Source: an uncultured Gammaproteobacteria bacterium
GTDB lineage: Bacteria; Patescibacteriota; Microgenomatia; Levybacterales; UBA12049
Direction: 5' to 3'
Assembly: GCA_964562445.1 (NCBI GenBank)
Contig: CAZLSZ010000001.1
Coordinates: 10,755 to 74,754 of the forward strand
Length of the DNA stretch: 64,000 bases
Position 1 is the first letter of the stretch. Every line of letters begins with the position of its first letter. The position numbers and the translations under genes are program-made. The notes beneath the pieces were generated by a model. The model was not told the DNA's origin, did not search any database, and saw only the letters and a list, made by a program, of their open reading frames with translations. Positions 9,326-64,000 of the stretch are shown here, piece by piece.

Positions 9326-9676
9326 ATGGATAATACAAGAACAACAGCAAAAAGACAAAGACAAATACGGGGACGAAAGAAAATTTCAAACGTCAGTGAT
9401 CGTATGCGATTGAGTGTGTACCGCTCAAATAGTTATATGTACGCGCAGATCATTGATCATAATGGTGACACGCTTGTCGGTGTTTCTGAAAAGTCATTGA
9501 GCATCGGAAGTAAAGGTACACCTGTGGAAAGAGCAAAACAGGTAGGTGTTGCTATCGCGAAAGCCGCGAAAGAGAAAAAAATTAATGATGTCGTTTTTGA
9601 TAAAGGCAGTTTCGCGTATCACGGACGCGTGAAAGCTGTCGCTGAAGGAGCCCGTGAAGGAGGATTAAATGTATGA
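9326..9676 (+). CDS. rplR: 50S ribosomal protein L18
   Basis: RMRLSVYRSNSYMYAQIIDHNGDTLVGVSE...AYHGRVKAVAEGAREGGL. Confidence 0.93.
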   Translation: MDNTRTTAKRQRQIRGRKKISNVSDRMRLSVYRSNSYMYAQIIDHNGDTLVGVSEKSLSIGSKGTPVERAKQVGVAIAKAAKEKKINDVVFDKGSFAYHGRVKAVAEGAREGGLNV

Positions 9677-10197
9677 GCAGAAATTTCGGTAATCCGGCAC
9701 ATATGAATCAGGCACAAAGTGAATTTGAAGAACAGGTGGTACAGATCAATCGTGTTTCTAAAAAGACTAAAGGTGGAAACAAGGTGGGTTTTTCCGCTCT
9801 TACTGTTGTGGGAGACGGCAATGGTCGTGTAGGAGTAGCCTTAGGGAAAGCGCCTGACGTTTCTAGCGCGATCCGAAAAGGTATCAATCAGGCAAAAAAA
9901 AATTTGATTACAATTCCTCTGGTTGACGGCACTATTCCTTTCCGAATTGATATCAAAGTCGGCGCCGCCAAGATCATGTTGAAGCCCGCGCCTCCGGGAT
10001 CAGGTATTATCGCGGGCGGTGCTGTACGCAGTGTCGTTTCCGTCGCCGGTATCAAGAATATCTCTTCCAAAATGCTTGGGACCACCAATAAAATCAGTAA
10101 TATTTACGCGACACTTGAGGCGCTTCGCAAAGTTAGTGAATTAGCTGACCGCAAAAAAGAACGATTGAGTGATGTGAAAGCAGGAAAGACCAAATAA
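9673..10197 (+). CDS. rpsE: 30S ribosomal protein S5
   Basis: INRVSKKTKGGNKVGFSALTVVGDGNGRVGVALGKA...GSGIIAGGAVR. The next gene is rplO directly; there is no L30 gene. Confidence 0.95.
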   Translation: MSRNFGNPAHMNQAQSEFEEQVVQINRVSKKTKGGNKVGFSALTVVGDGNGRVGVALGKAPDVSSAIRKGINQAKKNLITIPLVDGTIPFRIDIKVGAAKIMLKPAPPGSGIIAGGAVRSVVSVAGIKNISSKMLGTTNKISNIYATLEALRKVSELADRKKERLSDVKAGKTK

Positions 10198-10199
10198 GT

Positions 10200-10643
10200 A
10201 TGAATTTACATAATTTAGAGAAAATTAAAGCAAAAAGCAAAAAAAGAGTCGGTCTCGGACATGGATCAGGCCGCGGTAAGACTGCTGGACGCGGGCAAAA
10301 AGGACAAAAAGCGAGAAATTCCGTACCACTTCGATTTGAGGGTGGAGCACTGCCTCTTACCAAACGACTGCCGTTTCTCAGAGGAAAAGGCAGAAATAAA
10401 TCTTTGCAGGAGAAACCGGTTGTTATCAATGTTGAAGCATTGAATGTTTTTGCAAAAGGTGCCACAATAAATGAAGAAAGTCTCGTCAAACAGGGTTTAG
10501 CGACCAAGGAATTAATCGACAGAAAAGGCGTAAAAATTTTGGGACGGGGCAATATGACAGTCGCATTGACCGTACAGCTTCCTGTTTCCAAAGGTGCTGA
10601 AGAGAAGATTACCAAGGCAGGCGGCAACGTAACTAAGAACTAA
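10200..10643 (+). CDS. rplO: 50S ribosomal protein L15
   Basis: MNLHNLEKIKAKSKKRVGLGHGSGRGKTAGRGQKGQKARN. Confidence 0.93.
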   Translation: MNLHNLEKIKAKSKKRVGLGHGSGRGKTAGRGQKGQKARNSVPLRFEGGALPLTKRLPFLRGKGRNKSLQEKPVVINVEALNVFAKGATINEESLVKQGLATKELIDRKGVKILGRGNMTVALTVQLPVSKGAEEKITKAGGNVTKN

Positions 10644-19462: not shown

Positions 19463-20428
19463 CTATTTGAGGTCGATGATGGTGATTTCTTGTCTTTCAA
19501 TTTCTTTACTTTTTGCAAACCCTTCTTTTATGGCATCGCGAAATGCCTCCATGCTTTGATATCTTTCTTCAGGTTTGAATGCCAGAGCAGTATGGACAAC
19601 TTCTTCAATCGGCTCCAGATTTTTTGCCATATTGTCTTTTAATGAATCCTCAAATAACGGTGGTTTAGCCGTTAGATGCGCCATAGCGCTTGCAGCGCGT
19701 GTTATTCTGTTATAAGGATTTCTTCCCGTAAAAAGTTCATACCCTACTACTCCCAGCGAATAAATATCTCCTTCAGGCACGCTTATTATTTCTTCTTCGC
19801 TTCCCACTCGTTCATGAGGGACATATGCAGGCGTACCGTACGGGTCGTATTCATAATATGTTTTTTCACCTTTTTTTAGCTTTACGGCCATTCCCCAGTC
19901 GATAACTTTTATATTGGGTACTCCATTTTCTTCATGAAACAAAATATTATCGGGTTTGATATCCCGATGCAGAACGCCTTGCTGATGAGCGTATTCTATA
20001 CCTGCGGCAGTTTGCGCGAGAATGTGTACTCCGCAGTGAATACTTGCGCGTCCTTCGCGTTTTAATCTTTCTTTTACAGATTTTCCGTCAGCAAACCGCA
20101 TGGCGATATACGGATATTCTGCTTCACGATCATATTCAAATAAGTGAATAATGTGGCTATGGATAAGTTTTTGATGTATGAGGGCTTCATTATCAGCCTC
20201 CTGTAGAGGGTATTCGTTTTTAAATACTTTGAGCGCGACAGTATTTCCCGTGGTGGTATCAGTTCCTTTATAGACTTCGGCTGTCCCGCCTCTGCCGATC
20301 TTTTTCCCCAGGATAAATTTTTCATTGAATGTCCTGCCCGGAATTAATTCTTTCTTTTGCATAAAAAAGGGATTATAGTAGAGATTACCCCATTTTGCAA
20401 GGGATTGAGGGGTAAATATGATTGTCAT
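19463..20428 (-). CDS. Hanks-type serine/threonine protein kinase (soluble, kinase domain only)
   Basis: GRGGTAEVYKG...ALKVF (G-loop and VAIK-like), HRDIKPDNIL (catalytic loop), DWGMA (DFG variant), GTPAYVPHE. Confidence 0.9.
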   Translation of the reverse strand: MTIIFTPQSLAKWGNLYYNPFFMQKKELIPGRTFNEKFILGKKIGRGGTAEVYKGTDTTTGNTVALKVFKNEYPLQEADNEALIHQKLIHSHIIHLFEYDREAEYPYIAMRFADGKSVKERLKREGRASIHCGVHILAQTAAGIEYAHQQGVLHRDIKPDNILFHEENGVPNIKVIDWGMAVKLKKGEKTYYEYDPYGTPAYVPHERVGSEEEIISVPEGDIYSLGVVGYELFTGRNPYNRITRAASAMAHLTAKPPLFEDSLKDNMAKNLEPIEEVVHTALAFKPEERYQSMEAFRDAIKEGFAKSKEIERQEITIIDLK

Positions 20429-20502: not shown

Positions 20503-21717
20503 TTAGCGGGAGGAGTGTTTGAGTGATTCGGCGGCGATACTCACGGATATTCCCAGTGCCATACCCAGAAGGATACCGATCAGCCCTGCGGAGAATTTTC
20601 CTCCTTCTTTTAATGTCGCCAGTATTTTTTCCCGTCGCTCTTTTCCTTCAGGAGTAGAGGCATCAAATTCGGGAAGCATATCCAGGAGGGAATTAAAGTC
20701 TCCTTTGGCGACCCCTTCTATTACGTCACGCGCTTTGCCGCTATCCAAATCCCCCTCCTGCGCTCTTTTGAAGTATTCATCCATCGGATCTTCTCCTTTT
20801 TCTCGTGCTTCTTCCATCATTTTGTCCATTTGATTTACCATGCCGAGTTCTTTTTCTGCCTGTTCCAGCCGGCGTTTTGCGATCTCGTCATCGGGGAATT
20901 TGGTAAGTATATCTTTTTGTTGGGTTATTTCAGCTCTGAGTGATGCCGCTTGTTTTTCAATTCCTGCCGGACCTACTCCCAGCACATCCATCATCGCGTG
21001 AAAGTCATCTTTGTCCAGAATCGTCTTGCCGTCAATCGCCTGCAATGCTTTGTCAGCATCTTCCCGATCAGGGTGCCCTTCCGGAACGGTTTTATCGATA
21101 ATAGCTCGCATATCTCCTGCGGTGAGCATACCTTTCTCGCGTGCAATCTTTTCTATCTGCGTACTCATCTCATCGGTCATCTCCGGTGTTTCCATACTGG
21201 GATCAATCGTATCCAGATATGTCTTTACAAATTCCCGCTCCTCTCCGGTAAATCCTGCTTCTATGGCTTGTCTTTCCGACACAAGATTCATTCCCATAAG
21301 TTCACTTGGTGGGATAGTCATATCATATCTTGCAGCATCATCGCGGCCTCCTTCTCCTTGTTTGATTACTTTGCATGTGTAATTCCCTTTATCATCGATC
21401 CCTGTTATCTGGTCGACGTAAACATCATACGTCTCTCCTGTGGTACTGTCTTCATAGGTTGTTGCCAGCGGATTACCTTTGTCAGTGCCTTCTGTCGTAG
21501 GGAATGCAAGGGGGCCATTGGCAAAGTATTCTTGTTTGGGTTCATAAAGCTGTTTTGAACCTCGTATCTTGGTTCCTGATTCGTCATTCTCTTGAGATTT
21601 TTTGTTAAAGACACTACTTGCTACCAGTCCTATTTCTTTTGATCGGCGAGCTTGCTGCTCGGGAGATACTTCGCTTTCTGTTCGGGGTGGTGCTGTCTGC
21701 TCTGCTGCTTCTGTCAT
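20503..21717 (-). CDS. hypothetical acidic protein with C-terminal transmembrane anchor (tail-anchored), co-directional upstream of the STK
   Basis: 404 aa, D/E-rich, with coiled-coil-like middle. C-terminus GGKFSAGLIGILLGMALGISVSIAAESL is hydrophobic. No recognisable catalytic motif. Confidence 0.6.
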   Translation of the reverse strand: MTEAAEQTAPPRTESEVSPEQQARRSKEIGLVASSVFNKKSQENDESGTKIRGSKQLYEPKQEYFANGPLAFPTTEGTDKGNPLATTYEDSTTGETYDVYVDQITGIDDKGNYTCKVIKQGEGGRDDAARYDMTIPPSELMGMNLVSERQAIEAGFTGEEREFVKTYLDTIDPSMETPEMTDEMSTQIEKIAREKGMLTAGDMRAIIDKTVPEGHPDREDADKALQAIDGKTILDKDDFHAMMDVLGVGPAGIEKQAASLRAEITQQKDILTKFPDDEIAKRRLEQAEKELGMVNQMDKMMEEAREKGEDPMDEYFKRAQEGDLDSGKARDVIEGVAKGDFNSLLDMLPEFDASTPEGKERREKILATLKEGGKFSAGLIGILLGMALGISVSIAAESLKHSSR

Positions 21718-21761: not shown

Positions 21762-24356
21762 ATGTATATGGCTAATATAGAGCAGATTTTGCCTGTAGTA
21801 AAAGAAAAGGCGAAAGATACAGGAAAACAAGGCGCGGCTAAAGTAAAACACTTTTTCGGTCGGGGAAATAATGTGTCTCCTCAAGAACAACCTCAAAAGC
21901 CGGCATATGCCACTCCGGAATTTAAGAAAAATTTTTTTGTAGATAGGGGCGTGACAACGGAAGCTGCGGTAAAAGGCAGAAGGAGAGAAACCAACGAACG
22001 ATCAGAATGGGTACAATTTTCTGAAAAGACGAGAGAAGGGTTTACGACGTTTTTGGATAATTATGCCACAAATCTCCATGATATCATGCAGCAGCCTGGT
22101 GGCGCGGATATTCTCAAGTCACAAGAGCATAGTAAACATATCTATAAGCTTCTTTCAGAAGGAGTGTCATTTGATGGGACCAAGCAGGATGATACCAAAC
22201 TCAAGGAGAATATCAAAAAAATGCTTGATAAACCATCCGGCTGGGTGCTTACCAAAGAACTTATGGAACAAGAAACAGCCCTCGGTCTTATGGCTTTGGG
22301 GTTGGTAACAAGCGAGGATATGGGGAAAAGTGGTAAGTTGAGAGCAGTAGGAGAATATCTCGGGCTTGTTGATAAAAAAACTGATTTTAATAATGACCCT
22401 GGCTCAGTTATGCATCGTAATATAGGCAAAGGTACCGGAGGGAGTATAGGTGCAGTAGTCGGTGGTGGTGTTGGAAATATATTATCACGTGGGAATGCTG
22501 ATTTCTGGTTCAATATTGGGGATACTATGGCAAATATCCCTCATGGAAGTGTTGCGATGTCAACATATATTGGTGCAGGGGTTGGGGCGGTCTTAGGAAG
22601 TAGTTTGGCAGAGGGACGGAGGAATAAGCAAGATGCAGGGATGAGAGGGGAGTTTGCTTCTCATGAAAGTGCTGTTCTTCCCGGCGAATTGAAAGATTAT
22701 CTGAAAAAAGTTTGGAAAGTAGATGTTGATGGTTTGAAGAGTAGCGAGGCTGATGTGCGGGATGTTATGGGGACGTTGGCAAAGAATCTTAAAACGCGGG
22801 AATCGTATTTTGATGATCTTGGAATACCCAAAGATGTGCGGGATATGTCTCCGGAGAGTAAATTAATTGGAGGACGTTCTGTTGCACGGAGTGGGGAGAA
22901 GATTACACAAAAAATAATGGCAGTTTATAAAGAGAAAGGTGGAAGCACTCCGGAACAATATATGGAGGCGAGAAAGGCAGTGCTAGGAAAAATAACACAG
23001 GAGATGATTGAAGGAATAGAAAGTAAACCAAAGGAACGCCCGCTAGCAACTATTGATCAGAAAATAAAAGACAGACAGGAAGGCGGAAAATTATATGAGT
23101 TAAAGAAAAATAGTGCTGCAACAATAGAATCTATTTCAGAAGCGGGTAAGAATATATCCTCTGTAACAGAGGAAATGGCAACTTTTCAAAATGTTAAAGA
23201 TCTAACTGCTCAAAAAAAACAACTCGAAGACGATTTAAATAATTTATATACTCATATAACACCTCAAGATAGGAAAGATGAAATACAAAAAGAGCTATTT
23301 GGTACAGGAGGACTTCAGGAGAAAAAGCGTGATACTGCCGATAAAAGAGCCGAAGCAATTGATGCAATTCGTAATAGACATCCTATAAAAGATGGGGAAA
23401 CGGCTGCTGATTATTGGAAAAAAGTTGGTCCTTCAATTGACGCGACTGAGGAAATTTATAATGAACAAATTAAGGAAGTGGAAGAAAAAATAAATAAGTT
23501 ACTTCAAGAGAAAGCACAAATTAATGAGTTTGAAGAACGAATAAAGGATATCGGAGATCAGCTCAAAGGATATTCTAATCTTATAGCAAGTTATCAGAGT
23601 GATCTTACGTCAATACAGCCGCTTTTTAGTCCTGGTGTGTTAGAAGATAGGACAATAGATCCAGCTACGCATTTGAAAACGATTAATAGTAAAGCTTCCA
23701 CGGGCGGATGGACAAAAGATGAAAATGACGAAAATAGATTGAGGCTTTTGAAAGCAATTGCAGTAGCAAGAGCAAGTTCGTCAGGAACTATTGACAATAA
23801 TTTGCTCGAAATAGAAATGAGTACACTATTATCGCAAGAAAAGAAGAAGAAAGCTGGTTTAGAACAGAGGTTAGGAACAGTAAATTATGAAAAGGAGATT
23901 AATGATCTTACCATAACAAAAACACTTATTTCTCCAGAAACACAAGCAAAGGTATTTGGGAAGGCAGGAGAAATTTCAAAACAAATAGATAAATATGTTG
24001 ATAAAGATATTGTAGACCCGAAAGATACTATATCAAAAACAGAAAAAGCCCTAAAGGGAGAGAAAGGATATTATGAAATATTAGATTTACTTTTTGAATA
24101 TAGAAAACGACCGGATAGAGAAGAATATTTTTCTCAAATAAGCAAAGTGGTTACTCAAGATGAGGTACTTAAAGCACTGCAAGAGCTAGCTGAACTAGCA
24201 GATATAGATTTAAGTACATTATCTAACCCTAATAAGTTGGCAGATGTTATGGACCAGATAAAAGCAAATAAAGGAAAAGTTACAAGTAAACATATTAGAG
24301 GTATGTTTATTCGCTTAATGGATAATAGTCAAAATCGAGCCTTGGCGATGAGCTAA
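21762..24356 (+). CDS. large hypothetical protein (864 aa): glycine-zipper segment plus long coiled-coil region
   Basis: GKGTGGSIGAVVGGGVGNILSRG...YIGAGVGAVLGSSLAEG (GxxxG-rich). The remainder is K/E-rich heptad-like sequence. Start could be ATG 21768. Confidence 0.6.
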   Translation: MYMANIEQILPVVKEKAKDTGKQGAAKVKHFFGRGNNVSPQEQPQKPAYATPEFKKNFFVDRGVTTEAAVKGRRRETNERSEWVQFSEKTREGFTTFLDNYATNLHDIMQQPGGADILKSQEHSKHIYKLLSEGVSFDGTKQDDTKLKENIKKMLDKPSGWVLTKELMEQETALGLMALGLVTSEDMGKSGKLRAVGEYLGLVDKKTDFNNDPGSVMHRNIGKGTGGSIGAVVGGGVGNILSRGNADFWFNIGDTMANIPHGSVAMSTYIGAGVGAVLGSSLAEGRRNKQDAGMRGEFASHESAVLPGELKDYLKKVWKVDVDGLKSSEADVRDVMGTLAKNLKTRESYFDDLGIPKDVRDMSPESKLIGGRSVARSGEKITQKIMAVYKEKGGSTPEQYMEARKAVLGKITQEMIEGIESKPKERPLATIDQKIKDRQEGGKLYELKKNSAATIESISEAGKNISSVTEEMATFQNVKDLTAQKKQLEDDLNNLYTHITPQDRKDEIQKELFGTGGLQEKKRDTADKRAEAIDAIRNRHPIKDGETAADYWKKVGPSIDATEEIYNEQIKEVEEKINKLLQEKAQINEFEERIKDIGDQLKGYSNLIASYQSDLTSIQPLFSPGVLEDRTIDPATHLKTINSKASTGGWTKDENDENRLRLLKAIAVARASSSGTIDNNLLEIEMSTLLSQEKKKKAGLEQRLGTVNYEKEINDLTITKTLISPETQAKVFGKAGEISKQIDKYVDKDIVDPKDTISKTEKALKGEKGYYEILDLLFEYRKRPDREEYFSQISKVVTQDEVLKALQELAELADIDLSTLSNPNKLADVMDQIKANKGKVTSKHIRGMFIRLMDNSQNRALAMS

Positions 24357-24775: not shown

Positions 24776-26947
24776 ATGGTAGAGAAAATATCATTATCAG
24801 AAATAGCTCGCAAGAAAATACGCCGTAGTGCAGCCACAGTTGGCGCGGCAGGTGTTGTCGCGATTCCGATGGCTGCAGTTCCTTCTGCAGCTCATGCCGA
24901 ATCCCCTGCAAATGGTTCCCCTGCGCATGTTCAGGTCGTCAAGGATGTCCGGACCGGAGGAGTAGATTTCGATGCCAAGAGAATACACCTTACCGGTGTT
25001 AAGCCTTCATATTGTGTCATCCCGGAGCCTCGGCAGGAGCCTGAAAAGCCTGAGAAAATAGATGAAAAATTATTTGATGTATATACCGTAAAAAAAGGTG
25101 ATACCCTTTCTGAAATTGCAGCGGACTCTCTCAAACAAAAAGAAGGACAGCAATTTGACTGGAAAAAAACACAAGAGGATTTTATGCTTACCGCCGCAGC
25201 ATCCGGTATCGCAAATCCGGATCTTATTTATCCCGGACAAAAGATACACATCCCGGGTAAAGAACTCCGACAGACAGTGCGTGATGCTCAGCAAGGGAAT
25301 GGGAAGAAAGAAGTAGTGGATACTGTAAAGGCGCTTACACAGGAGATCACGCATCGTGGATACCACAAGGCGGACAATGAAGCTCTGAATGTGCTTACCG
25401 CAGTTTCGGAAATCCAACAGCAAAATCCCCCGAAAGAGCCCACAGGATTAGCTGCCGATAAGAGTTTATTGGAAATAGCGACTGAATTAAATATTGCTCC
25501 CATTAATATTTCTACTCCTTTTCGATCGGATGTTGTTGAATCTCAAACGAAAATCGCTCTTGCCAATCAATGTATCGTAGGGACAGAAGCAAAATCACAA
25601 ACCACTATACGTGAACAATTGACAAGAAAAGGTGACACCAAATCAGATACTTATCTACGCGCGCGCATGGCAGAGGCAGCAACTAGCTATGATATCTCTA
25701 AGTATAATCATAACTCTAGGGATATACAGATGCAAAAAGGGGAGAAGTTCAATAAACTGTCCGGCGGTGTAGAATCAGTGTTGCAAGGAATTTCCTCCAT
25801 GAGTTTGCGGGATATGATGGATCTGAAATCATTGCGGGATCAGAAAAAGTTTCCAGATGATGTGTATACAGAGGTGGCTACATTATGGGCAGTAGCCGCG
25901 AGTAAAGATATTGGAATGATACTTAGTGAGAATGATCATCATACATTACGTAATGCAGCATATGGGCATCTCGTCGAAGCCTTGAGTCGTAATGATCGCC
26001 GTCAAGAACCTGATGATACCAAGAAACTCATTACTCTGCTCAATAAGGCAAAAACCCCCGAAGAGCGCGCTCAATTGATGCTTGATCATCCGAATGCGCT
26101 CAAACACTTCTTCCGTGATGATGCGCAAGGAGCAGTTCCACCTCTCAATCCTCCTGCGGTTGATATCTCACCGAAAGATCCCCCTAAAGATGAAGGGAAT
26201 GCCTTATTAGCTTATGGGAAAGAGCATGCTGGGTGGATTGCAGGAGCATTGGGGCTCCTTGCGCTAGGAGCGGTAGGTGTTAAAAAGAGAAAGGAAATAA
26301 AAGAAAAATTAATGCATAAAAAATATAAAGATGAGAAAGTGCAAGAAAGCTTAGCTTTGCGTAAAGCTGAGAAAAAGCACCTTACGGATGATGAAATTAG
26401 GGAGCAAATAAGATTAATTTATCCAAAAACAATGACGTGGAAGCAAGAAAGTAAACTAAGATTAAATACTAATAAAGGAAGACTGGATGTCCTTCCGAAT
26501 GAAACAAGTGTGGGGATGGATGAAGCTTCATTTAGAAAGTTTTTGGAATTTGTAAAGGAAAATCCTGATTCGGTTTATTGTAAAGCAGCACTCGACGAAT
26601 ATGAATCGCATAAAAAGGCTGGTACTGAAGATAAATATGCGTTTGTTGCAAGCGCGAGAACACGTCTTGCTACGAATCTGGAAGATGTGAAGTTAAGCAT
26701 AGAGGATAGAGATGTAACCAAGAGACCTCTTGGATATGTAAGCTTTGAGTGGAGACTTGTCGAAGTTATTGATCCAGCATCATTACCACCTCAACCACCT
26801 GCTCCTAAACGAAAGCCACGCAGAACACCTACTAGTCCGGAACCACAAGGTGGTACAACTCCGCCCGTTACTCCTGAACCGCAGGGTGGAGCTACACCAC
26901 CTGCACAGCCTGAGCCCAAGGGGGGGACGAAACCTCCTGAAAAGTAA
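24776..26947 (+). CDS. LysM domain-containing membrane/secreted protein (723 aa) with Pro-rich C-terminal tail
   Basis: N-terminal signal-like RRSAATVGAAGVVAIPMAAVPSAAHA. LysM: YTVKKGDTLSEIAADSL...IYPGQKIHIP. TM helix GWIAGALGLLALGAVGV then KKRKE. Tail PEPQGGTTPPVTPEPQGGATPPAQPEPKGG. Confidence 0.7.
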   Translation: MVEKISLSEIARKKIRRSAATVGAAGVVAIPMAAVPSAAHAESPANGSPAHVQVVKDVRTGGVDFDAKRIHLTGVKPSYCVIPEPRQEPEKPEKIDEKLFDVYTVKKGDTLSEIAADSLKQKEGQQFDWKKTQEDFMLTAAASGIANPDLIYPGQKIHIPGKELRQTVRDAQQGNGKKEVVDTVKALTQEITHRGYHKADNEALNVLTAVSEIQQQNPPKEPTGLAADKSLLEIATELNIAPINISTPFRSDVVESQTKIALANQCIVGTEAKSQTTIREQLTRKGDTKSDTYLRARMAEAATSYDISKYNHNSRDIQMQKGEKFNKLSGGVESVLQGISSMSLRDMMDLKSLRDQKKFPDDVYTEVATLWAVAASKDIGMILSENDHHTLRNAAYGHLVEALSRNDRRQEPDDTKKLITLLNKAKTPEERAQLMLDHPNALKHFFRDDAQGAVPPLNPPAVDISPKDPPKDEGNALLAYGKEHAGWIAGALGLLALGAVGVKKRKEIKEKLMHKKYKDEKVQESLALRKAEKKHLTDDEIREQIRLIYPKTMTWKQESKLRLNTNKGRLDVLPNETSVGMDEASFRKFLEFVKENPDSVYCKAALDEYESHKKAGTEDKYAFVASARTRLATNLEDVKLSIEDRDVTKRPLGYVSFEWRLVEVIDPASLPPQPPAPKRKPRRTPTSPEPQGGTTPPVTPEPQGGATPPAQPEPKGGTKPPEK

Positions 26948-27159: not shown

Positions 27160-29562
27160 GTGGAAGGTGGAGAGCAAAAAGGCAATGCCCTCAAAAATGT
27201 AAAAGAGGGAGAAGATAATGATTATGGAAAAATGAGAGGTAAAATCAGTAGTTTAATAGACAAAGGTGCGAATATAGTTAATAGTATTAAAGATAAATTG
27301 AGTAGAGGTGAAGAAGATAGTGGAAATGTAGGAGGGGTAAAAAATAATAAAGAATCTTCCGTTACACCGAAAGCTGTTGAAGAGGTCTCTCCTCAATTTG
27401 AAGAATTTAATGCAGAGCATAGGGTAGATGAAGAGAAGAATGCGATAGAAGTCAGATCATATGGAGAATCAAATATAGGGGGCAGAGCACGAAATGAAGA
27501 TGCACATGGAACAAAGGGTAAAATCAGCTTTGCTGAGATTGGTGCAAATGGAACGTCAGATTCTGAAAAATATCAAATAATGGCAGAAATGCTGAATAAT
27601 GTAAAATTTGTAAATCCAAAAACGGGTGAAGAAGAATCATTTCAAACTTCAGGGGAATCAATAAAACAATTAGAAGAAAATCTGGGTAGTTATTTAGCGG
27701 AAGGTAAGCTAGGTAGTATTGATTTTGTAGCAGATGGAGCCGGCGGAGAAGGTAATGGTGAAGAAGCTAGTAGTATCGCTGGATTAGGTTTTTCTTATGC
27801 AATTGCTGAGGCAGTATCTCAAGGCGAAGACATTACACAAGATACAGTTCGTGAAGCTGTCATGTACGCACATAATTTAATCGTAGGGTATAACCTCCAA
27901 GATGATAAAAAGAAAGGAGCTTCCACATTTATTGCTTCAGTGACCAATAGTAAGGGGCAAACATATGTCGCTTCAGTAGGTGATTCTCGTGTCTATAAGC
28001 AAGATAGTGAAGGAAATGTTGTTCGAATCACAGAAGATCAGAGTCCTATGGAAGGTTGGGTTCAAAACGAGAGGAAGCAAATAAAAGTTGAAAAAAGAAA
28101 AGAAAATAGAGAATTTCAGTATCATGAATCCTTTACTGATATAGATAAAATTTGGGTTTCAAAACAGCTGGGTGGACGTGTTACAGAAGAATTAAGGGAA
28201 TCAGATATTCAAATATATGGAATGACTGTGGATAACCAAGAAAAATTGTTTTTAGTCTGCGATGGTGTTTGGGAAGGTATAAATCTCGCAGATAAAAATG
28301 TAAATGATGTATTACAAGAAGCCAGTAGAAAATACAAAACAAGCTTAGAACTTAAGGTATCTCCATTATTAGCAAAAAATTTTGCGGATGGGTTTGTGTT
28401 TAAAGAGGTAAATTTAAAAGGGACAGAGGGTATGTCGGCTGAAGAGTTATCCAAACATTTAACACGGCGAGAAGTTGGGGATTGGAGTAGGGATAATGTA
28501 ACAGCTGTGGTGGTAGAGAAAAGTAATAAAGTAATTCAAGAAAACGCGGATGATAAAGATAAAGAAGTAGTCTTTGACGAAATGCACTCTTCAGTATCAA
28601 TTGATGATGATGTAGAGAAAGATAATAATGGCAGTAAAATAAATGGAATAGAAAATTTAACAAAAACAAATGAGTATAAGGGCTGCAGACTTACATGGGA
28701 TAGACCTGAAGATACTGCATTAATGCCATATCATATGAAAGATATGGATGGTGAGTCTGTTCCTTATGTAAGAGCTGAAAGAATTTATAGGGAACTAGAA
28801 AAGTCTCAAATTGTTAATGAAGGTTCTACCCAAATATTATTAGGTTTTGGGTCTCAAGATCGTATACTAGAAATGGATAGATTTTCTTATAGACCTACAG
28901 CTTCTCTCTACTCAATATTTAGTGGATTCGGATGGCAATCTTCTGTCTCTGACTACGCTAAACAAGATTTTGAGTCATTTGTAAGGATGAGTTTGAGAGG
29001 TGGGAGTTCATCTGTTCAGGAAGCGCTTAGTGATTCTTTTACTGGAATGCATGAATATATGCGAAGTCTTAGGAAAATAAATAAGGAATCAGGCAGTTCA
29101 GCTCTTGTAGCATTTGTTACTAATAAAAAATTATATATCGCAAATGCAGGAGATTCTCGTGCAGTTATAGGTTCAGAAGGAAAGGCGATACGATTATCTA
29201 AAGATCATACACCAGATGATCCTGAAGAAAGACAAAGAATTGAATCAACAGGCAAGAAAGTTACTAAAACAGCAGGAGATATATATCGTGTTAATGATGT
29301 ATTGCCTGTATCGAGAGCATTAGGCTATTATGAAGCAGAAGTTAGCCCAGAACCGACCATAAAGACATACGAATTGGAAGGGAAAAAGGAAAGACTAATT
29401 CTTGCATCAAAAACATTATGGAATGTGATGAGTGATCAAGATGCTTTGGATTTAATTAAAGACACCTCTGATAGTAAAAAAGCATCAGAAGTATTGGCTC
29501 AAAAAGCAAAAGAATTGGGGAGTAAAGGAGATATCTCTGTAATCGTGGTAGATTTTAAATAA
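27160..29562 (+). CDS. tandem PP2C-family (PPM) Ser/Thr phosphatase, 800 aa; second domain degenerate at metal-binding Asp positions
   Basis: Domain 1: GGRARNEDAHG, FVADGAGGEG, ASVGDSRVY, LVCDGVWEG, DNVTAVVVE. Domain 2: LVAFVTNKKLYIANAGDSRAV, LSKDHTPDDPEERQRIE, VSRALGYYE, but SKTLWN replaces DGLWD and no DGHGG is present. The track start is a GTG; the frame is open a further 219 nt upstream with no start codon. Confidence 0.8.
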   Translation: MEGGEQKGNALKNVKEGEDNDYGKMRGKISSLIDKGANIVNSIKDKLSRGEEDSGNVGGVKNNKESSVTPKAVEEVSPQFEEFNAEHRVDEEKNAIEVRSYGESNIGGRARNEDAHGTKGKISFAEIGANGTSDSEKYQIMAEMLNNVKFVNPKTGEEESFQTSGESIKQLEENLGSYLAEGKLGSIDFVADGAGGEGNGEEASSIAGLGFSYAIAEAVSQGEDITQDTVREAVMYAHNLIVGYNLQDDKKKGASTFIASVTNSKGQTYVASVGDSRVYKQDSEGNVVRITEDQSPMEGWVQNERKQIKVEKRKENREFQYHESFTDIDKIWVSKQLGGRVTEELRESDIQIYGMTVDNQEKLFLVCDGVWEGINLADKNVNDVLQEASRKYKTSLELKVSPLLAKNFADGFVFKEVNLKGTEGMSAEELSKHLTRREVGDWSRDNVTAVVVEKSNKVIQENADDKDKEVVFDEMHSSVSIDDDVEKDNNGSKINGIENLTKTNEYKGCRLTWDRPEDTALMPYHMKDMDGESVPYVRAERIYRELEKSQIVNEGSTQILLGFGSQDRILEMDRFSYRPTASLYSIFSGFGWQSSVSDYAKQDFESFVRMSLRGGSSSVQEALSDSFTGMHEYMRSLRKINKESGSSALVAFVTNKKLYIANAGDSRAVIGSEGKAIRLSKDHTPDDPEERQRIESTGKKVTKTAGDIYRVNDVLPVSRALGYYEAEVSPEPTIKTYELEGKKERLILASKTLWNVMSDQDALDLIKDTSDSKKASEVLAQKAKELGSKGDISVIVVDFK

Positions 29563-29655: not shown

Positions 29656-30171
29656 ATGAAGGAAGGGCAGCCACGATTTATAAAAACAAAACGCACAGTA
29701 GCGGCGGGTGCTGTGGCAGGAGGATTTCTTCTGGGTATTCCGGCAGCCGCGAGTGCTGAAACGCCCCAGCCAACTCCGAGCAAAACCGCTTGCACAATGA
29801 ACGAAATAATTACGCATGAAAAATATAATCAGCCATATAAAACCTGTTATATAAATACTGCTAGCGCAAAAGAAGATAAAGATACTGATGATTTGCTCCC
29901 GTTTCTTTTTCTTGGTTTCTCTTTGGGAGTAGGAGGGCTGGCAACTGGGAAGATTGTACGTTCCAAAAAACAGTTTGAGAATGAATATCTCTATAAAAAA
30001 ACACAGAAACTATCCCCTCAACCCGAGTCATCAGACGATATACATGCAGTAGTGGAGAATTTGAAAAAACAATCGCTCACGGAAAAAGAAGAAAAAGGAT
30101 TTATGAGAAAGAAAAAAATAGATATACGCCTCTTCCTCATCAGTTCTCAACGACTGATTCCGGCATTATGA
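29656..30171 (+). CDS. hypothetical exported/membrane protein (171 aa; signal peptide plus one TM)
   Basis: AAGAVAGGFLLGIPAAASA signal. TM LLPFLFLGFSLGVGGLATG followed by basic residues. Confidence 0.55.
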   Translation: MKEGQPRFIKTKRTVAAGAVAGGFLLGIPAAASAETPQPTPSKTACTMNEIITHEKYNQPYKTCYINTASAKEDKDTDDLLPFLFLGFSLGVGGLATGKIVRSKKQFENEYLYKKTQKLSPQPESSDDIHAVVENLKKQSLTEKEEKGFMRKKKIDIRLFLISSQRLIPAL

Positions 30172-30369: not shown

Positions 30370-31017
30370 ATGAAAGAACGAAAAATAGTACAGAGTGCTC
30401 TTGCAGTAGGGCTTACATTGGGAGGTCCGACATTACCGGGGCTGTCTCTAGAGGCAGATCCTCCTACTCCTCATGTCATGCAAAGTACGGACAAAAAATA
30501 TCCTACAAAAGAAGAGGTAGAAGCCCAAATCGCCGAGAGAAATAAGAATGAATTATCGGGACTAGGAGTTGTAAGTTTGCTGAGTGCATGCGTAGTCGGT
30601 TCAGTAATCTACGCCAGACGAAAGTATAATAGATATGAAAGAGAAAAATCATTGTATCTTACCACAGCAGAACCTGTCTATGAGAAAGATGCTGCAATTT
30701 TTTCGCAAAGTCTCTATCGAAATGCCATTCCCAAGAAAGATGTAAAAAGATATGGGAAAGATCTTATGGAACGAGGTGGCAATCCCAAACATGAATTTTC
30801 AACAACCAATAAAGAAGGATTTATCAACGTCGCCAAGTCTGCGGGCATTCCGAATCGAAAAATATATGCAACTGTGTTGAATTATGATACGCTTTTGGAA
30901 GAGAAACCCAATCCCGAATCCGGTACAGTGAAAGCGCTTATTATCCAAGCATTCAATAAAAAAGATCAGACACGCTACGAAACCAAAATAGGGAAGAGAT
31001 TTTATAGAGGAAATTAA
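30370..31017 (+). CDS. hypothetical exported/membrane protein (215 aa; signal peptide plus one TM)
   Basis: ALAVGLTLGGPTLPGLSLEA signal-like. TM VVSLLSACVVGSVIYA then RRKYNRY. Same architecture as the 29656 gene. Confidence 0.55.
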   Translation: MKERKIVQSALAVGLTLGGPTLPGLSLEADPPTPHVMQSTDKKYPTKEEVEAQIAERNKNELSGLGVVSLLSACVVGSVIYARRKYNRYEREKSLYLTTAEPVYEKDAAIFSQSLYRNAIPKKDVKRYGKDLMERGGNPKHEFSTTNKEGFINVAKSAGIPNRKIYATVLNYDTLLEEKPNPESGTVKALIIQAFNKKDQTRYETKIGKRFYRGN

Positions 31018-42100: not shown

Positions 42101-42766
42101 ATGAAGAGTATGCCAAGAAAGACACTTGCCCTTATTTCTGGTTTAGTATTAGTTACGGTTATCCTTTTTGTTGTGGCGCTTCGTGCGGGACAACAGCAGC
42201 AACAGCCGGTTAAGCCTCAAAATGAAACTAACACAGCTGTTAAGGCAGAGCCGACAATCCCCGCTCATACTGTCCTTACTGTAGGTCCGAATCCTTTAGA
42301 AGTCGGACAAGGACAATTAGGTACTGCGCAAATTTCTGTAGATACTTCCGATAATAATGTCACTGCTATTCAGTTGGAAATGGGATATGATCCGAATCTT
42401 CTCAGTAATGTCAAAATTGTGCCGGGGCCATTATTTAAGAATCCAGCGGTACTCATCGATAAAAATGACCCCGTAAAAGGAAGATATACTTATGCATTTG
42501 GTATCACGCCGAGCGGTCAGCCTATTACAGGTAAAGGTGTTATCGCGACGGTTACGTTTACGCCCAAGGCAGGTTCAGCTGGGAAACAAACACAGCTTGG
42601 TCTTCTTCCCACGACACTGGTAACTGCTCGCGGTATTGCTGATTCAGTCATGAAGACAAGCAGTGGTACCGTGGTGAGTATTACTGCGTCAGGTACAAAT
42701 ACAACAGGCAATATCAATGTTCAGACAGCTCCTCTTGCTCCTCAGACTTCTTCATCTGCGCGATAA
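42101..42766 (+). CDS. secreted beta-sandwich protein, cohesin-domain-like
   Basis: Signal/TM LALISGLVLVTVILFVVAL. GQGQLGTAQISVDTSDNNVTAIQLEMGYDPNLL...ATVTFTPKAGSAGKQTQL resembles cohesin-type modules. Confidence 0.4.
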   Translation: MKSMPRKTLALISGLVLVTVILFVVALRAGQQQQQPVKPQNETNTAVKAEPTIPAHTVLTVGPNPLEVGQGQLGTAQISVDTSDNNVTAIQLEMGYDPNLLSNVKIVPGPLFKNPAVLIDKNDPVKGRYTYAFGITPSGQPITGKGVIATVTFTPKAGSAGKQTQLGLLPTTLVTARGIADSVMKTSSGTVVSITASGTNTTGNINVQTAPLAPQTSSSAR

Positions 42767-51503: not shown

Positions 51504-54416
51504 TTACTTATGTGAACTGTTGCAAAGCATACTATATTCGCATGTTTTGCAGATGATTGATCCGCTGCATGTGAAGCTGCTTTTTGAGATTTCATCTACT
51601 TTTTGAACGATATATTCCTTTGCTTCCTCCAATTGTTCAGGTGTTCTGGTAGTTGAAACTTTTTTATTTTCTTCCAGGTAATATAATGTGAGAAGCACAT
51701 CCTCAGGTTTTTTATGAAGTAACGCATCATTTACCTCAGTTGCGGCGATACCGTAAAGAGACAACTGTAAATCGTCTTTTGCTTTTTTTTCAGTGAGTAC
51801 ATTTTTTCCAGTTTTATAATCAATAATTTCTATTTTTCCATTGGGAAGCCGGTCAATGCGATCAATTCTTCCGCTTATTTTTAATTTACCGATCATAAAA
51901 GAAAACGGCATTTCAACAGTCGCGACAGGCGGGATATTCTTTATATTCTCTTGCGCAAGTTTTGTTACCATCCGAAGTGCCTGTGTATATGTTTGTTCTT
52001 CATGTTGCTTGCTGGTATATCCGGCCGATACCCAATTTGTTTTCAGATAATTCTCCATGTCTTCGCGGCTGGCTGTGCTATTTTGTTTAAGATCTTGGAA
52101 GAAGTCTCTCAATGCTCCGTGTACACTTACTCCATAGCTGAGAGCAGGAGAGGGTTGAGACGGCATATTGAGAATATATCGGAGTTTGTAATGCAATGGA
52201 CAGGTAAGATATGTCTGTAATTGTGAGTACGAAATATAGGTAATATCCAGCGGTTCCCGTATCTCTTTTTCAGGAATTTTCTCTTCCACGATATTTGTAT
52301 TGAACACGTCAAGGAGTGAAAGCTGCTGTGCATCAGCTGCTACTGTTTGTTTTTTTATCAGCTGATGCACAGTAGCCTCTCCTAATGTTTCAGTAACAAA
52401 CGGTGACAATTTACGTTCCCGTTTGCCTTCATTATAAAAACGCGCTGCTGTTAGGTAGAGTTTTTCTTTTGCACGAGTGATCGCGACATAGAAAAGTCGT
52501 CTCTCTTCTTGGATTCCTTCATCTCCTTCCGGAAGCGCTTCACGGATAATATCGGGTGGAAGAGGAATTTGTTCTTTTCTGTCTCTACTTGGAAATCTCT
52601 GCGCGACGAGATTAACCACAAAAACATACGGAAATTCAAGTCCTTTGCTTGAATGCACAGTCAGAATATTGACGGCGTTATTGCGTGTCCAGTCCATCTC
52701 CGCCGCAAGCGGACTTTCCCCAAGTTCCATAGCTAGATCAATCCAGTCAACCACTGCAAAGACAGAAATATCTTTTTTATTGTGGGAATATGTTTGCAGT
52801 TTATTAAAAAATTTCGCGATATTTTGCGCTTCATTTTCTGTTTTGAGAGAACCGGGATCCAAATAATGTCCTAAGAGTCCGCTTTCCTCAAAAAATTGAT
52901 ACAGAATCTGCCCCGCGGATTCATGCGGCACGAGTTCAAGATGCTTTTTCAGCATTGTGATAAGAGATATAATTTTTTCTTTACCTTCTTTTGTCAGCAT
53001 TGTTTCCTCAACCTTTTCCATCGCTTCAAAAAGTGTTATATTACTTTGTTTTGAAAAATTCAGCATCGCTGATATATCACGTGCTTGTAGCGCGAAAATC
53101 GGCATCGTCATTACTCTATAGAGAGAAGATGTGTCTTCAAAGTTTGCCAATACATGTAAGTAGGCGATAAGATCTTTTATCTCTTCCTGTTGGTAGAGAT
53201 GATCCGGTCCGAGAAATTGAAATGGGATATGTAATCGATCCAGTGCTCTTTTAAATGGAATTGCGTGATCATTAGCACGGACAAGAATCGCGAAATCATT
53301 GTATGGACGATGTGTTTTTTTCACTTCTTTTTGTATTTCTTTGGCGACTCGTTCCGCTTCATCTTCTCCTCGCGCTTCATAGATAAATTCTATTTGTTCT
53401 CCTTTCTCTCCACGCATACCGATAAGTTTTTTATCTATTTTTTCTTTAATCTCTAGCCTGTCGGGATTATTTTGTTGGATAAGCGTATATGCCGCGTCCA
53501 AAATATTTTGTGTAGAACGATAATTTTTTGTCAAAGCGATAATTTTGCATCCGGGGAAGTGCGAGCGAAATTGCATCATATTTGCGATTGCTGCTCCTCT
53601 CCACCGATAAATACTTTGATCATCATCTCCCACGACTGTTATATTTTTCCGTTGTCCTGCCAGAAGAATTGCCATTTCGTTTTGGGCGAAATTTGTATCC
53701 TGAAATTCATCTACGAAAACATATTGAAATTGTCGCTGGTATTGTTTGAGTACTGACGGACGTTCCCGAAATAATTTCAGCGTATTGCTGATAAGATCCG
53801 AATAATCCATAACGCCTTCTTTTGCTTTCAGATCAGCGTACATCGTAAATGTCTGCGCGAGCTCCATGATTTTTTGTTTTTCGTCATCTTCAATCGTCTT
53901 ATCTTTCATGATACGATTTGCGTACGCGATGTATTGCTCCGGAGTTATGTCATCATCCCGCAGTCTGCTGAAATGTGTGAGCATTCCTTGGAGAAATTTT
54001 GTAGGATTTCCGAATGGACGAAAATATGATAGGTTGAAATCAAACAAATGTTTTCGCATAAAAAGTAAACATTCTGCTTCAGACATCAGCGTGAACGATC
54101 CGTTGAGACCGATATGAATGGCGTTTTGTCGCAAGACTCTGTCACAAAATGCATGGAATGTTTCTATCCAAAGTGTTGCGTACCCATACGGAAGGATTTC
54201 GTCAATTCTGCTTTCCATCTCCTGTGCTGCTTTATCAGTAAAGGTGAGCGCAAGGATATTTGACGGAGGAATATTTTTTTCAAGGATAAGGTGTTCTATA
54301 CGTTTGGTAACGACAGTTGTTTTCCCTGTCCCCGCGCCGGCAATAATGAGTAATGGATCGGTACCATGTGTCACTGCTGCTTGTTGTTCTTTATTGAGTG
54401 AGGATATATCGGGCAT
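51504..54416 (-). CDS. UvrD/PcrA-family SF1 helicase fused to C-terminal Cas4/RecB-type Fe-S PD-(D/E)XK nuclease (AddA/AdnB-like helicase-nuclease)
   Basis: Helicase motifs: IIAGAGTGKTT (I), VFVDEFQDTN (II), TKNYRSTQNIL (IV), VHSSKGLEFPYVFV (V), LFYVAITRAKEKLYL (VI). Nuclease: CPLHYKL, EIIDYKTGK, LQLSLYG, CSGSIICKTCEYSMLC. Confidence 0.85.
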   Translation of the reverse strand: MPDISSLNKEQQAAVTHGTDPLLIIAGAGTGKTTVVTKRIEHLILEKNIPPSNILALTFTDKAAQEMESRIDEILPYGYATLWIETFHAFCDRVLRQNAIHIGLNGSFTLMSEAECLLFMRKHLFDFNLSYFRPFGNPTKFLQGMLTHFSRLRDDDITPEQYIAYANRIMKDKTIEDDEKQKIMELAQTFTMYADLKAKEGVMDYSDLISNTLKLFRERPSVLKQYQRQFQYVFVDEFQDTNFAQNEMAILLAGQRKNITVVGDDDQSIYRWRGAAIANMMQFRSHFPGCKIIALTKNYRSTQNILDAAYTLIQQNNPDRLEIKEKIDKKLIGMRGEKGEQIEFIYEARGEDEAERVAKEIQKEVKKTHRPYNDFAILVRANDHAIPFKRALDRLHIPFQFLGPDHLYQQEEIKDLIAYLHVLANFEDTSSLYRVMTMPIFALQARDISAMLNFSKQSNITLFEAMEKVEETMLTKEGKEKIISLITMLKKHLELVPHESAGQILYQFFEESGLLGHYLDPGSLKTENEAQNIAKFFNKLQTYSHNKKDISVFAVVDWIDLAMELGESPLAAEMDWTRNNAVNILTVHSSKGLEFPYVFVVNLVAQRFPSRDRKEQIPLPPDIIREALPEGDEGIQEERRLFYVAITRAKEKLYLTAARFYNEGKRERKLSPFVTETLGEATVHQLIKKQTVAADAQQLSLLDVFNTNIVEEKIPEKEIREPLDITYISYSQLQTYLTCPLHYKLRYILNMPSQPSPALSYGVSVHGALRDFFQDLKQNSTASREDMENYLKTNWVSAGYTSKQHEEQTYTQALRMVTKLAQENIKNIPPVATVEMPFSFMIGKLKISGRIDRIDRLPNGKIEIIDYKTGKNVLTEKKAKDDLQLSLYGIAATEVNDALLHKKPEDVLLTLYYLEENKKVSTTRTPEQLEEAKEYIVQKVDEISKSSFTCSGSIICKTCEYSMLCNSSHK

Positions 54417-54446
54417 GGAGAAATTCTAACATAAAAGAAAGAAAAG

Positions 54447-63998: not shown

Positions 63999-64000
63999 TG

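Follow-up and report, generated by a model that had tools for sequence, protein, structure and literature searches.

The gene at positions 27160..29562 (+) of the 64,000-nucleotide stretch of contig CAZLSZ010000001.1 analysed here (the window) is a single open reading frame of 800 amino acids (aa; GTG start, stop codon included in the coordinates) that encodes two metal-dependent protein phosphatase (PPM/PP2C) domains: an intact-looking, bacterial-type domain 1 is followed by a eukaryote-type domain 2 with a predicted PP2C fold and an ablated active site. The reading favoured here, which we regard as probable, is that domain 1 provides the catalyst and that domain 2 is a maintained, non-catalytic pseudophosphatase with a targeting or regulatory role. 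The pseudophosphatase case itself is clean and statistically supported; the function as a targeting module is what we infer beyond it.

Domain 2 (aa 560-800; 28837..29559, +) matches the Pfam family PF00481 (PP2C) at aa 576-790 with an E-value of 4.3e-54 and 184.3 bits (cutoff 20.3), covering profile positions 29-253 of 255, and domain 1 matches PF13672 (PP2C_2) at aa 187-371 (E 2.5e-10, 40.7 bits versus a cutoff of 24). Both matches exceed chance by a wide margin, and the original prediction of two PP2C domains, the second of them PP2C-like by profile, holds with these boundaries. The AlphaFold2 (AF2) model of domain 2 has a pLDDT of 84.6 and a pTM of 0.84 (170 residues at 90 or above), and its Foldseek matches are ABI1, HAB1, PPM1K and PPM1B (TM-score 0.78-0.80, E ~1e-20; root-mean-square deviation of 1.7-2.9 Å to PPM1K and ABI1). 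In contrast to the PF00481 profile and the predicted alpha-beta-beta-alpha sandwich fold of PP2C, which were both found in domain 2, the set of binuclear metal ligands (D38, D60, G61, D239 and D282 in PPM1A numbering, used for all ligand positions below) is incomplete, and Arg33 and His62 are absent.

The comparison set for these positions consisted of the 122 nearest PF00481 domains from an exhaustive search, and the motif changes were read in three agreeing alignments (HMMER against ABI1, MAFFT with the close matches, and MAFFT with the 122 domains); a BLASTP alignment of domain 2 with P0041, its sister in the neighbour-joining (NJ) tree, likewise shows them. In motif 1, a deletion of about five residues has taken out the G-x-R segment and with it R33, leaving the remnant Q566-D567 (28855..28860, +; alignment) in which E37 is replaced by Gln and D38 is kept. 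The former DGHGG motif reads S588-G-F590-G-W-Q593 (28921..28938, +): D60 has become S588 and the general acid H62 has become F590, G61 is kept as G589, and one residue is inserted. At the former DGLWD motif, which is (C/S)DGLWD in the relatives, S750-K751-T752-L-W-N755 (29407..29424, +) is found, so that D239, G240 and D243 correspond to K751, T752 and N755, respectively, and K751 would occupy the former metal position. The former DN motif is G790-D791 (29527..29532, +), with D282 changed to Gly and N283 to Asp. The GDSR motif is kept according to the alignment (G664-D665-S-R667; 29149..29160, +), D665 being the equivalent of D146, and domain 2 also retains D682-HTPDDPEERQRIE-695 and S718-RALG-722. 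Among the 122 domains, the columns of D60, D239 and D282 hold Asp in 121, the lone exception being itself degenerate; G240 is Gly in all 122 of them and H62 is His in 120. The observations from which domain 2 had been called a probable pseudophosphatase, namely retained GDSR, DHxPDDPxERxRIE and SRALG blocks (here at 664-667, 682-695 and 718-722) next to a DGLWD turned into SKTLWN and a missing DGHGG, were thus recovered consistently across the alignments, and the designation itself is upheld by the ligand table, the AF2 model and Foldseek, which together describe a PP2C fold with three metal-ligand Asp lost.

Because two or three metals are needed by every PPM known so far (PMC12002173) and the M1/M2/M3 ligand set is missing from domain 2, the latter should be catalytically dead, as far as this can be judged from the sequence. 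A shift of the Asp ligands, which had been named beforehand as the finding that would speak against this assignment, was not observed: D791 is positioned in the N283 column, which contains Asp also in several relatives that still possess D282, and is no substitute for the latter. Reading motif 1 in another register (R568...D572) was likewise rejected, since Q566-D567 aligns gap-free to the E-D of P0041, has the 21-residue distance from the DGHGG site that is seen in P0041, and fits the predicted strand. Frameshifts and sequencing errors were ruled out as well as a cause of the degenerate motifs, the other reading frames being devoid of canonical motifs.

Domain 1 (aa 96-455; 27445..28524, +), a bacterial-type PPM with PF13672 and Stp1-like matches, carries the full catalytic motif set (R..ED, DGxGG, GDSR, DG, DN), including the phosphate-binding Arg. 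Motif 1 is R109-A-R-N-E113-D114 (27484..27501, +) with the phosphate-binding Arg and the metal-site Glu/Asp, motif 2 is D192-G193-A-G-G196 (27733..27747, +) with the bridging Asp and the Gly carbonyl ligand, and the GDSR motif is G274-D275-S-R277 (27979..27990, +) with D275 as third-metal Asp; motif 8, D368-G-V-W-E372 (28261..28275, +), and motif 11, D445-N446 (28492..28497, +), were identified by alignment. Each of the elements listed for this domain at first reading (RxxxED, DGxGG, GDSR, DGxW(E/D), DN) could be located at residue level. The closest solved relatives by sequence are the cyanobacterial tPphA structures, together with PstP and MsPP, and the first Foldseek matches are tPphA, PstP, MsPP and the Streptococcus agalactiae STP (E 1e-9 to 1e-5, TMt ~0.6), obtained with an AF2 model of moderate quality (pLDDT 69, pTM 0.75; motif-1 strand poorly modelled). 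With profile, motifs and modelled fold in agreement, domain 1 is assigned to the bacterial PPMs of PF13672, tPphA/PstP class, and is predicted from its residues to be catalytically active. It was not filed as Stp1: its score against the Stp1/IreP equivalog NCBIfam NF033484 is 100.7 bits, versus a cutoff of 230. Compared to bacterial PPMs of 237-240 aa, domain 1 contains three lineage-specific insertions, one of 63 aa in the stretch from motif 1 to motif 2, one of about 19 aa in the flap and one of 38 aa ahead of motif 11; the two large ones are otherwise seen in P0002 alone.

P0002, a protein from a metagenome-assembled genome (MAG) of a Patescibacteria group bacterium with 34% identity to domain 1, is the sole other member of the domain 1 sub-family among 5.8 billion clustered proteins, and neither the genome scan, which returned the P0002 locus only, nor the metagenome scans extended this sub-family. 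The MEG N-terminus from the GTG start is common to the window protein and this sole close relative, which lacks a second PPM domain and has an unrelated C-terminal portion of about 170 aa. Its motif 1 (L001, 10001-11695) reads G-N-P-A-N-D-Q-D, versus G-G-R-A-R-N-E-D in the window protein; with the Arg and Glu replaced and the Asp kept, the catalytic status of P0002 may itself be altered.

According to the sequence comparisons, the two domains of the window protein do not derive from each other. They share 29% identity over 151 core aa and fail to match each other by tblastn at 1e-3, on which grounds a recent internal duplication was ruled out; the gene is best described as a fusion of a bacterial-type (tPphA/PstP-like) with a eukaryote-type (ABI1/PPM1K-like) PPM lineage, and the term "tandem" of the original prediction does not apply in the sense of a duplication. 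Along the gene, from the N-terminus through domain 1 and the linker to domain 2, the GC content stays at 0.32-0.37 and the GC content at third codon positions (GC3) at 0.19-0.22, which argues for an old fusion and not for a chimeric assembly; an assembly chimera at the domain junction was rejected on the same uniformity. The GC3 of the gene is lower than in the neighbouring genes (0.28-0.44), i.e. the gene is more AT-rich at third positions. Low expression or a foreign origin of the entire gene are possible explanations.

In the NJ tree, the clade of domain 2 and P0041 comprises P0040 (a 1,919-aa protein from a MAG), P0042, P0044, P0046 and P0006, and the P0046 cluster includes an FHA-domain protein of Candidatus Blackburnbacteria. 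P0040 (L047, 2851-8610), P0042 and P0045 are MAG or metagenome proteins of 1,900-2,200 aa with a terminal PF00481 domain close to domain 2. Judged by these relatives, the eukaryote-type PP2C domain is resident, in varied fusions, in bacteria resembling those of the Candidate Phyla Radiation (CPR) and seems to behave there as a mobile module; a recent transfer from a eukaryote need not be invoked for domain 2.

A link to protein kinases is found for both parental lineages. The window contains a gene for a soluble Hanks-type Ser/Thr kinase of 321 aa (19463..20428, -; PF00069, E 2e-47) 6.7 kb upstream of the phosphatase gene on the opposite strand, in agreement with the earlier statement of a Hanks kinase about 7 kb away; it carries the Gly-rich loop, VALK and HRD, and an unusual DWG instead of the Mg-binding motif DFG. 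Two Hanks kinases with 24-26% identity to the window kinase are encoded immediately upstream of the P0002 gene, and the P0041 gene is located directly upstream of a DWG Hanks kinase (L003, 1959-3833), which has 34% identity to the window kinase in a full-length match over 298 aa. Both DWG kinases end in ...TIID and may, from these shared features, form a small subfamily among the kinases of these bacteria. It is suggestive that both parental phosphatase lineages are kinase-linked elsewhere, the domain 2 lineage with the same kind of kinase as in the window. The link is real but indirect, given the distance, the opposite strand and its derivation from the gene order around relatives in two further genomes.

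Under the favoured reading, domain 1 (aa ~96-455) would dephosphorylate its substrates by means of its complete Mn/Mg ligands and phosphate-binding Arg; domain 2 (aa ~560-800) would fold as a PP2C, would form neither the M1/M2 (or M3) metal centre nor a phosphate-binding site, and would have been retained for the binding of proteins, without catalysis of its own, so as to target and/or regulate domain 1. Its most likely partner would be the DWG Hanks kinase or the substrates of that kinase, the kinase being proposed since active relatives of domain 2 adjoin kinases of this kind; the identity of the partner is, however, speculative. A more far-reaching version, to which we give only tentative credence, is that a design of active first and guiding second domain evolved independently among the PPMs of a CPR bacterium: a eukaryote-type PP2C, formerly the cognate phosphatase of a DWG kinase, would have been fused behind an unrelated bacterial-type PPM and then inactivated, and would now dock to the kinase, or inhibit it, independently of phosphate, thereby bringing the active domain to the kinase and its membrane-protein substrates. 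If true, the protein would be the first phosphatase guided by a pseudoenzyme to be described from an ultra-small episymbiotic bacterium with its minimal signalling network.

The assumption that domain 2 is maintained has to be weighed against its being a functionless relic, a fused and inactivated phosphatase now decaying with no present role. Among the 42 columns with at least 85% conservation in the relatives, domain 2 keeps 25 of the 30 non-catalytic ones (83%) and 3 of the 12 catalytic ones (25%; Fisher p = 6e-4), although its overall identity to the nearest relatives is no higher than 33-36%. At least 12 nucleotide changes, with two-nucleotide steps in many of the changed catalytic columns, and two indels are required to account for the catalytic replacements, so that the inactivation is old and not recent; the reading frame is nevertheless intact over 240 codons, without frameshift or stop. 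Because the structural signature residues and the frame have been kept despite the old inactivation, the sequence points to selection on the scaffold of domain 2 after the loss of catalysis, and a maintained domain fits better than a decaying one. The confident predicted fold and the dense coding throughout the window, from a probably streamlined CPR genome, likewise disfavour a relic. The lack of an orthologue that would show conservation, the long branch of domain 2 (see below) and the atypically low GC3 of the whole gene are in favour of it, but decay without a function is, on balance, quite unlikely. Conservation of the scaffold after the loss of catalysis would also be expected if domain 2 formed an intramolecular pseudo-dimer with domain 1, i.e. 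if it merely switched the latter allosterically in cis and bound no external protein. The PPMs SpoIIE, RsbP and PfPPM2 need dimerisation for full activity; Plasmodium falciparum PfPPM2 possesses two PPM domains and requires dimerisation for optimal activity (PMC8949495), the switch helix and dimer interface of RssB/SpoIIE have been discussed (PMC6546054), and the 104-aa linker between domains 1 and 2 is, by its composition, long and flexible enough to be in keeping with such an arrangement. However, no pre-existing homodimer interface is expected between domains of different PPM lineages with 29% identity, and P0002 works without a second PPM domain; an exclusive role in cis is therefore held to be unlikely.

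The original prediction had proposed that the degenerate domain docks phosphorylated substrates, i.e. that it acts as a phosphate-dependent trap presenting phospho-Ser/Thr proteins to domain 1. Substrate-trapping PPM mutants do exist (e.g. the PPM1H variant 7L4I), and GDSR (D665) and D567 are kept in domain 2, but the known trapping variants retain their metals. PPMs hold the phosphate through metal-bound waters and Arg33; domain 2 keeps only one of the four core Asp ligands, has lost the Gly following D239, the general-acid His and Arg33, and has Lys at the D239 position, so that no phosphate-contacting PPM element is left. With the metal-bound waters and Arg33 gone, any docking by domain 2 is, from its residues, more likely to be phosphate-independent than phosphate-dependent, and a phosphate-dependent trap is improbable. 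Still harder to sustain is a non-canonical catalysis by domain 2 (single-metal, metal-independent or directed at another substrate class) via D567, D665, N755 and D791, which we consider most improbable. Four acidic or amide residues are indeed left around the former site, and D791 adjoins the lost D282 position; but known PPMs need two or three metals, TAB1 and PHLPP2 with a single M2 metal are inactive (PMC12002173), and the occurrence of D791 in the N283 column, where Asp is found also in relatives with D282, identifies it as something other than a shifted ligand.

Several observations weigh against a maintained pseudophosphatase domain that guides an active one towards the kinase. An orthologue with the fused or degenerate domain was not found in the sets of 5.8 billion and 1.84 billion proteins or in the genome and metagenome scans (the first metagenome scan yielded no relative, the second only generic PP2Cs of 22-36% identity), and because the protein is a singleton in the searched collections, continued selection on domain 2 is presumed from its pattern of kept and lost columns. 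In the NJ tree, domain 2 is located on a long branch (mean distance 0.74 versus 0.64-0.66 for its neighbours), which relaxed selection would also produce. The kinase gene is not only 6.7 kb distant and on the opposite strand but also separated from the phosphatase gene by three unrelated genes, and the synteny argument for the DWG kinase derives from one other organism, represented by three near-identical contigs. With respect to domain 1, the AF2 model is only moderate (pLDDT 69) with a motif-1 strand that is not confident, and the large insertions could affect its activity. Finally, domain 2 may, like TAB1 and PHLPP2, still bind one metal in an M2-like position (S588, the carbonyl of G589, and D567 via water).

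A combination of an active with a degenerate PPM domain had been called unusual in bacteria. With regard to its frequency, this holds: a set of 1.84 billion representative proteins gave 16,406 relatives, and the best 150 of these included only two further tandem PPMs of prokaryote type, both with signal peptides; the literature search revealed no work on PP2C in Patescibacteria or on tandem PP2C proteins of bacteria. Precedents (RssB, MBA3953736.1 and PfPPM2) nevertheless exist for each element, and the layout is rare, not unprecedented. One of the two tandems, MBA3953736.1 of Candidatus Dependentiae (P0048; loci L048 and L049), resembles the window protein in combining a degenerate and an intact PPM domain in one bacterial polypeptide, the degenerate domain having N, N, N, F, T and Q in the E37, D38, D60, H62, D146 and D239 columns; it differs in that the pseudo domain comes first, both domains are eukaryote-type and an N-terminal signal peptide is present. 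This 760-aa protein, with the degenerate motifs MNN, NGFSG, GTSR and QGVFE, is encoded among ankyrin-repeat genes; given the signal peptide and these gene neighbours, it is probably a secreted effector. It is annotated only as "PP2C domain-containing protein", and no description of it as an independent pseudo-plus-active tandem was found in the literature searched. The second tandem is a bacterial protein with both domains largely intact. A secreted effector like the Dependentiae tandem was ruled out for the window protein, which contains neither a signal peptide nor a transmembrane (TM) segment.

Among degenerate PP2C domains of known function, those of TAB1 and PHLPP2 are similar to domain 2, a PF00481-type domain with lost M1 and M3 ligands, in having a PP2C fold with incomplete metal ligands, no catalysis, and a kinase-binding or scaffolding role (PMC12002173). 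They differ in being eukaryotic, in still binding one M2 metal and in not being fused to an active PPM; in domain 2, the D60 equivalent is lost, too (S588), the domain is present in cis with an intact bacterial-type PPM, and its partner is only putative. In bacteria, the C-terminal domain of Escherichia coli RssB is a degenerate PP2C pseudophosphatase domain without catalytic Asp that serves protein-protein recognition (PMC6546054). There, however, an RsbU/SpoIIE-type pseudo-PPM is combined with a response-regulator receiver and is neither of the PF00481 type nor paired with an active PPM; a Pfam match to the Response_reg receiver domain was absent from the window protein at E-values up to 1. 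PfPPM2 shares with it the presence of two PPM domains in one chain, which in the Plasmodium protein interact functionally (PMC8949495), but both of the latter are catalytic, eukaryotic and the product of duplication within one lineage, whereas the window protein shows neither two competent domains nor a common lineage of them. Compared to PPMs of the Stp1/PstP/PrpC type, the motifs and fold class of domain 1 and the Hanks kinase in the neighbourhood are alike; the score below the Stp1 cutoff, the 63-aa and 38-aa insertions and the missing PstP-like TM anchor are different. In receptor-type protein tyrosine phosphatases (RPTPs), an active D1 domain is accompanied by a catalytically impaired, paralogous D2 domain that modulates specificity or activity. 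This design is like that of the window protein, but it is realised in an unrelated Cys-based fold and in an animal membrane receptor, and is drawn on as an analogy only. What is specific to the window protein is the combination of a predicted cytoplasmic location, a bacterial-type, presumably active and a eukaryote-type, presumably dead domain, a kinase-linked ancestry and a probable CPR host.

Outside the two domains, the N-terminal ~95 aa (27160..27444, +) are of charged, low-complexity composition without a Pfam match and are probably disordered. The inter-domain linker (aa 456-559; 28525..28836, +) is acidic, with pLDDT values of 38-70 in its modelled part. No TM or signal-like segment was detected by hydropathy in the 800-aa protein (maximum KD19 0.87), which, lacking a hydrophobic segment, is predicted to be soluble and cytoplasmic.

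The window as a whole represents an ordinary bacterial chromosome with dense coding throughout: tuf, the ribosomal protein operon, secY, adk, map, rpoA, rplQ and the Hanks kinase gene are followed by genes for unknown and for LysM membrane proteins, the phosphatase gene, metK, recA and rny. At 9673-10643, ribosomal protein S5 is followed at once by L15 without an L30 gene in between, an arrangement reported for CPR/Patescibacteria. Based on this arrangement, the origin of P0002 from a Patescibacteria MAG and the CPR members in the domain 2 clade, the host is most likely a CPR bacterium. Counterparts of housekeeping proteins of the window with at least 90% identity are present in Logan and ENA assemblies. 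Genes of membrane proteins flank the phosphatase gene at 24776-26947, 29656-30171 and 30370-31017 (+) and at 20503-21717 (-). Three flanking membrane proteins have a similar Ala/Gly-rich, signal-like N-terminal segment ending in ...AAxAE(S/T)P plus one TM helix, and one of these three contains LysM and a Pro-rich tail of PEPQGG repeats; the 404-aa flanking protein is C-terminally anchored. The LysM protein is the only one of the flanking membrane proteins with a Pfam match. They are possible substrates of the kinase or the phosphatase. Between the kinase and phosphatase genes, 21762-24356 (+) encodes a long, charged, coiled-coil-like protein of 864 aa with a Gly-rich hydrophobic patch and no Pfam match. 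A cohesin-domain protein is encoded at 42101-42766 (+), and cohesin and dockerin proteins adjoin P0002 (L001, 13177-15075), i.e. surface scaffold modules recur in both genomes. At 51504-56408, the gene of an AddA-like UvrD helicase/PD-(D/E)XK nuclease (970 aa, -) abuts an open reading frame for a VirD4/TrwB-like coupling ATPase (653 aa). From about 54 kb on, the GC content drops to ~0.36 towards position 64000, and this low-GC region may be an integrated mobile element.

Eukaryotic signalling offers well-established cases of an active enzyme being guided or regulated by a paralogous pseudoenzyme, e.g. the JAK pseudokinase domains, the D2 domains of RPTPs and TAB1; to our knowledge, very few bacterial examples have been documented. 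For the family, the relatives of domain 2 indicate that PF00481-type PP2C domains circulate in CPR bacteria in many fusions, including FHA-PP2C proteins and giants of ~2,000 aa. Until a partner has been identified, the practical impact will be limited, the protein being a singleton from an uncultured organism. If domain 2 is maintained, however, a bacterium with a very small genome would spend about 240 codons on a non-catalytic signalling module, and the protein would offer a compact, single-chain system for the role of the PP2C fold after the loss of its metals.

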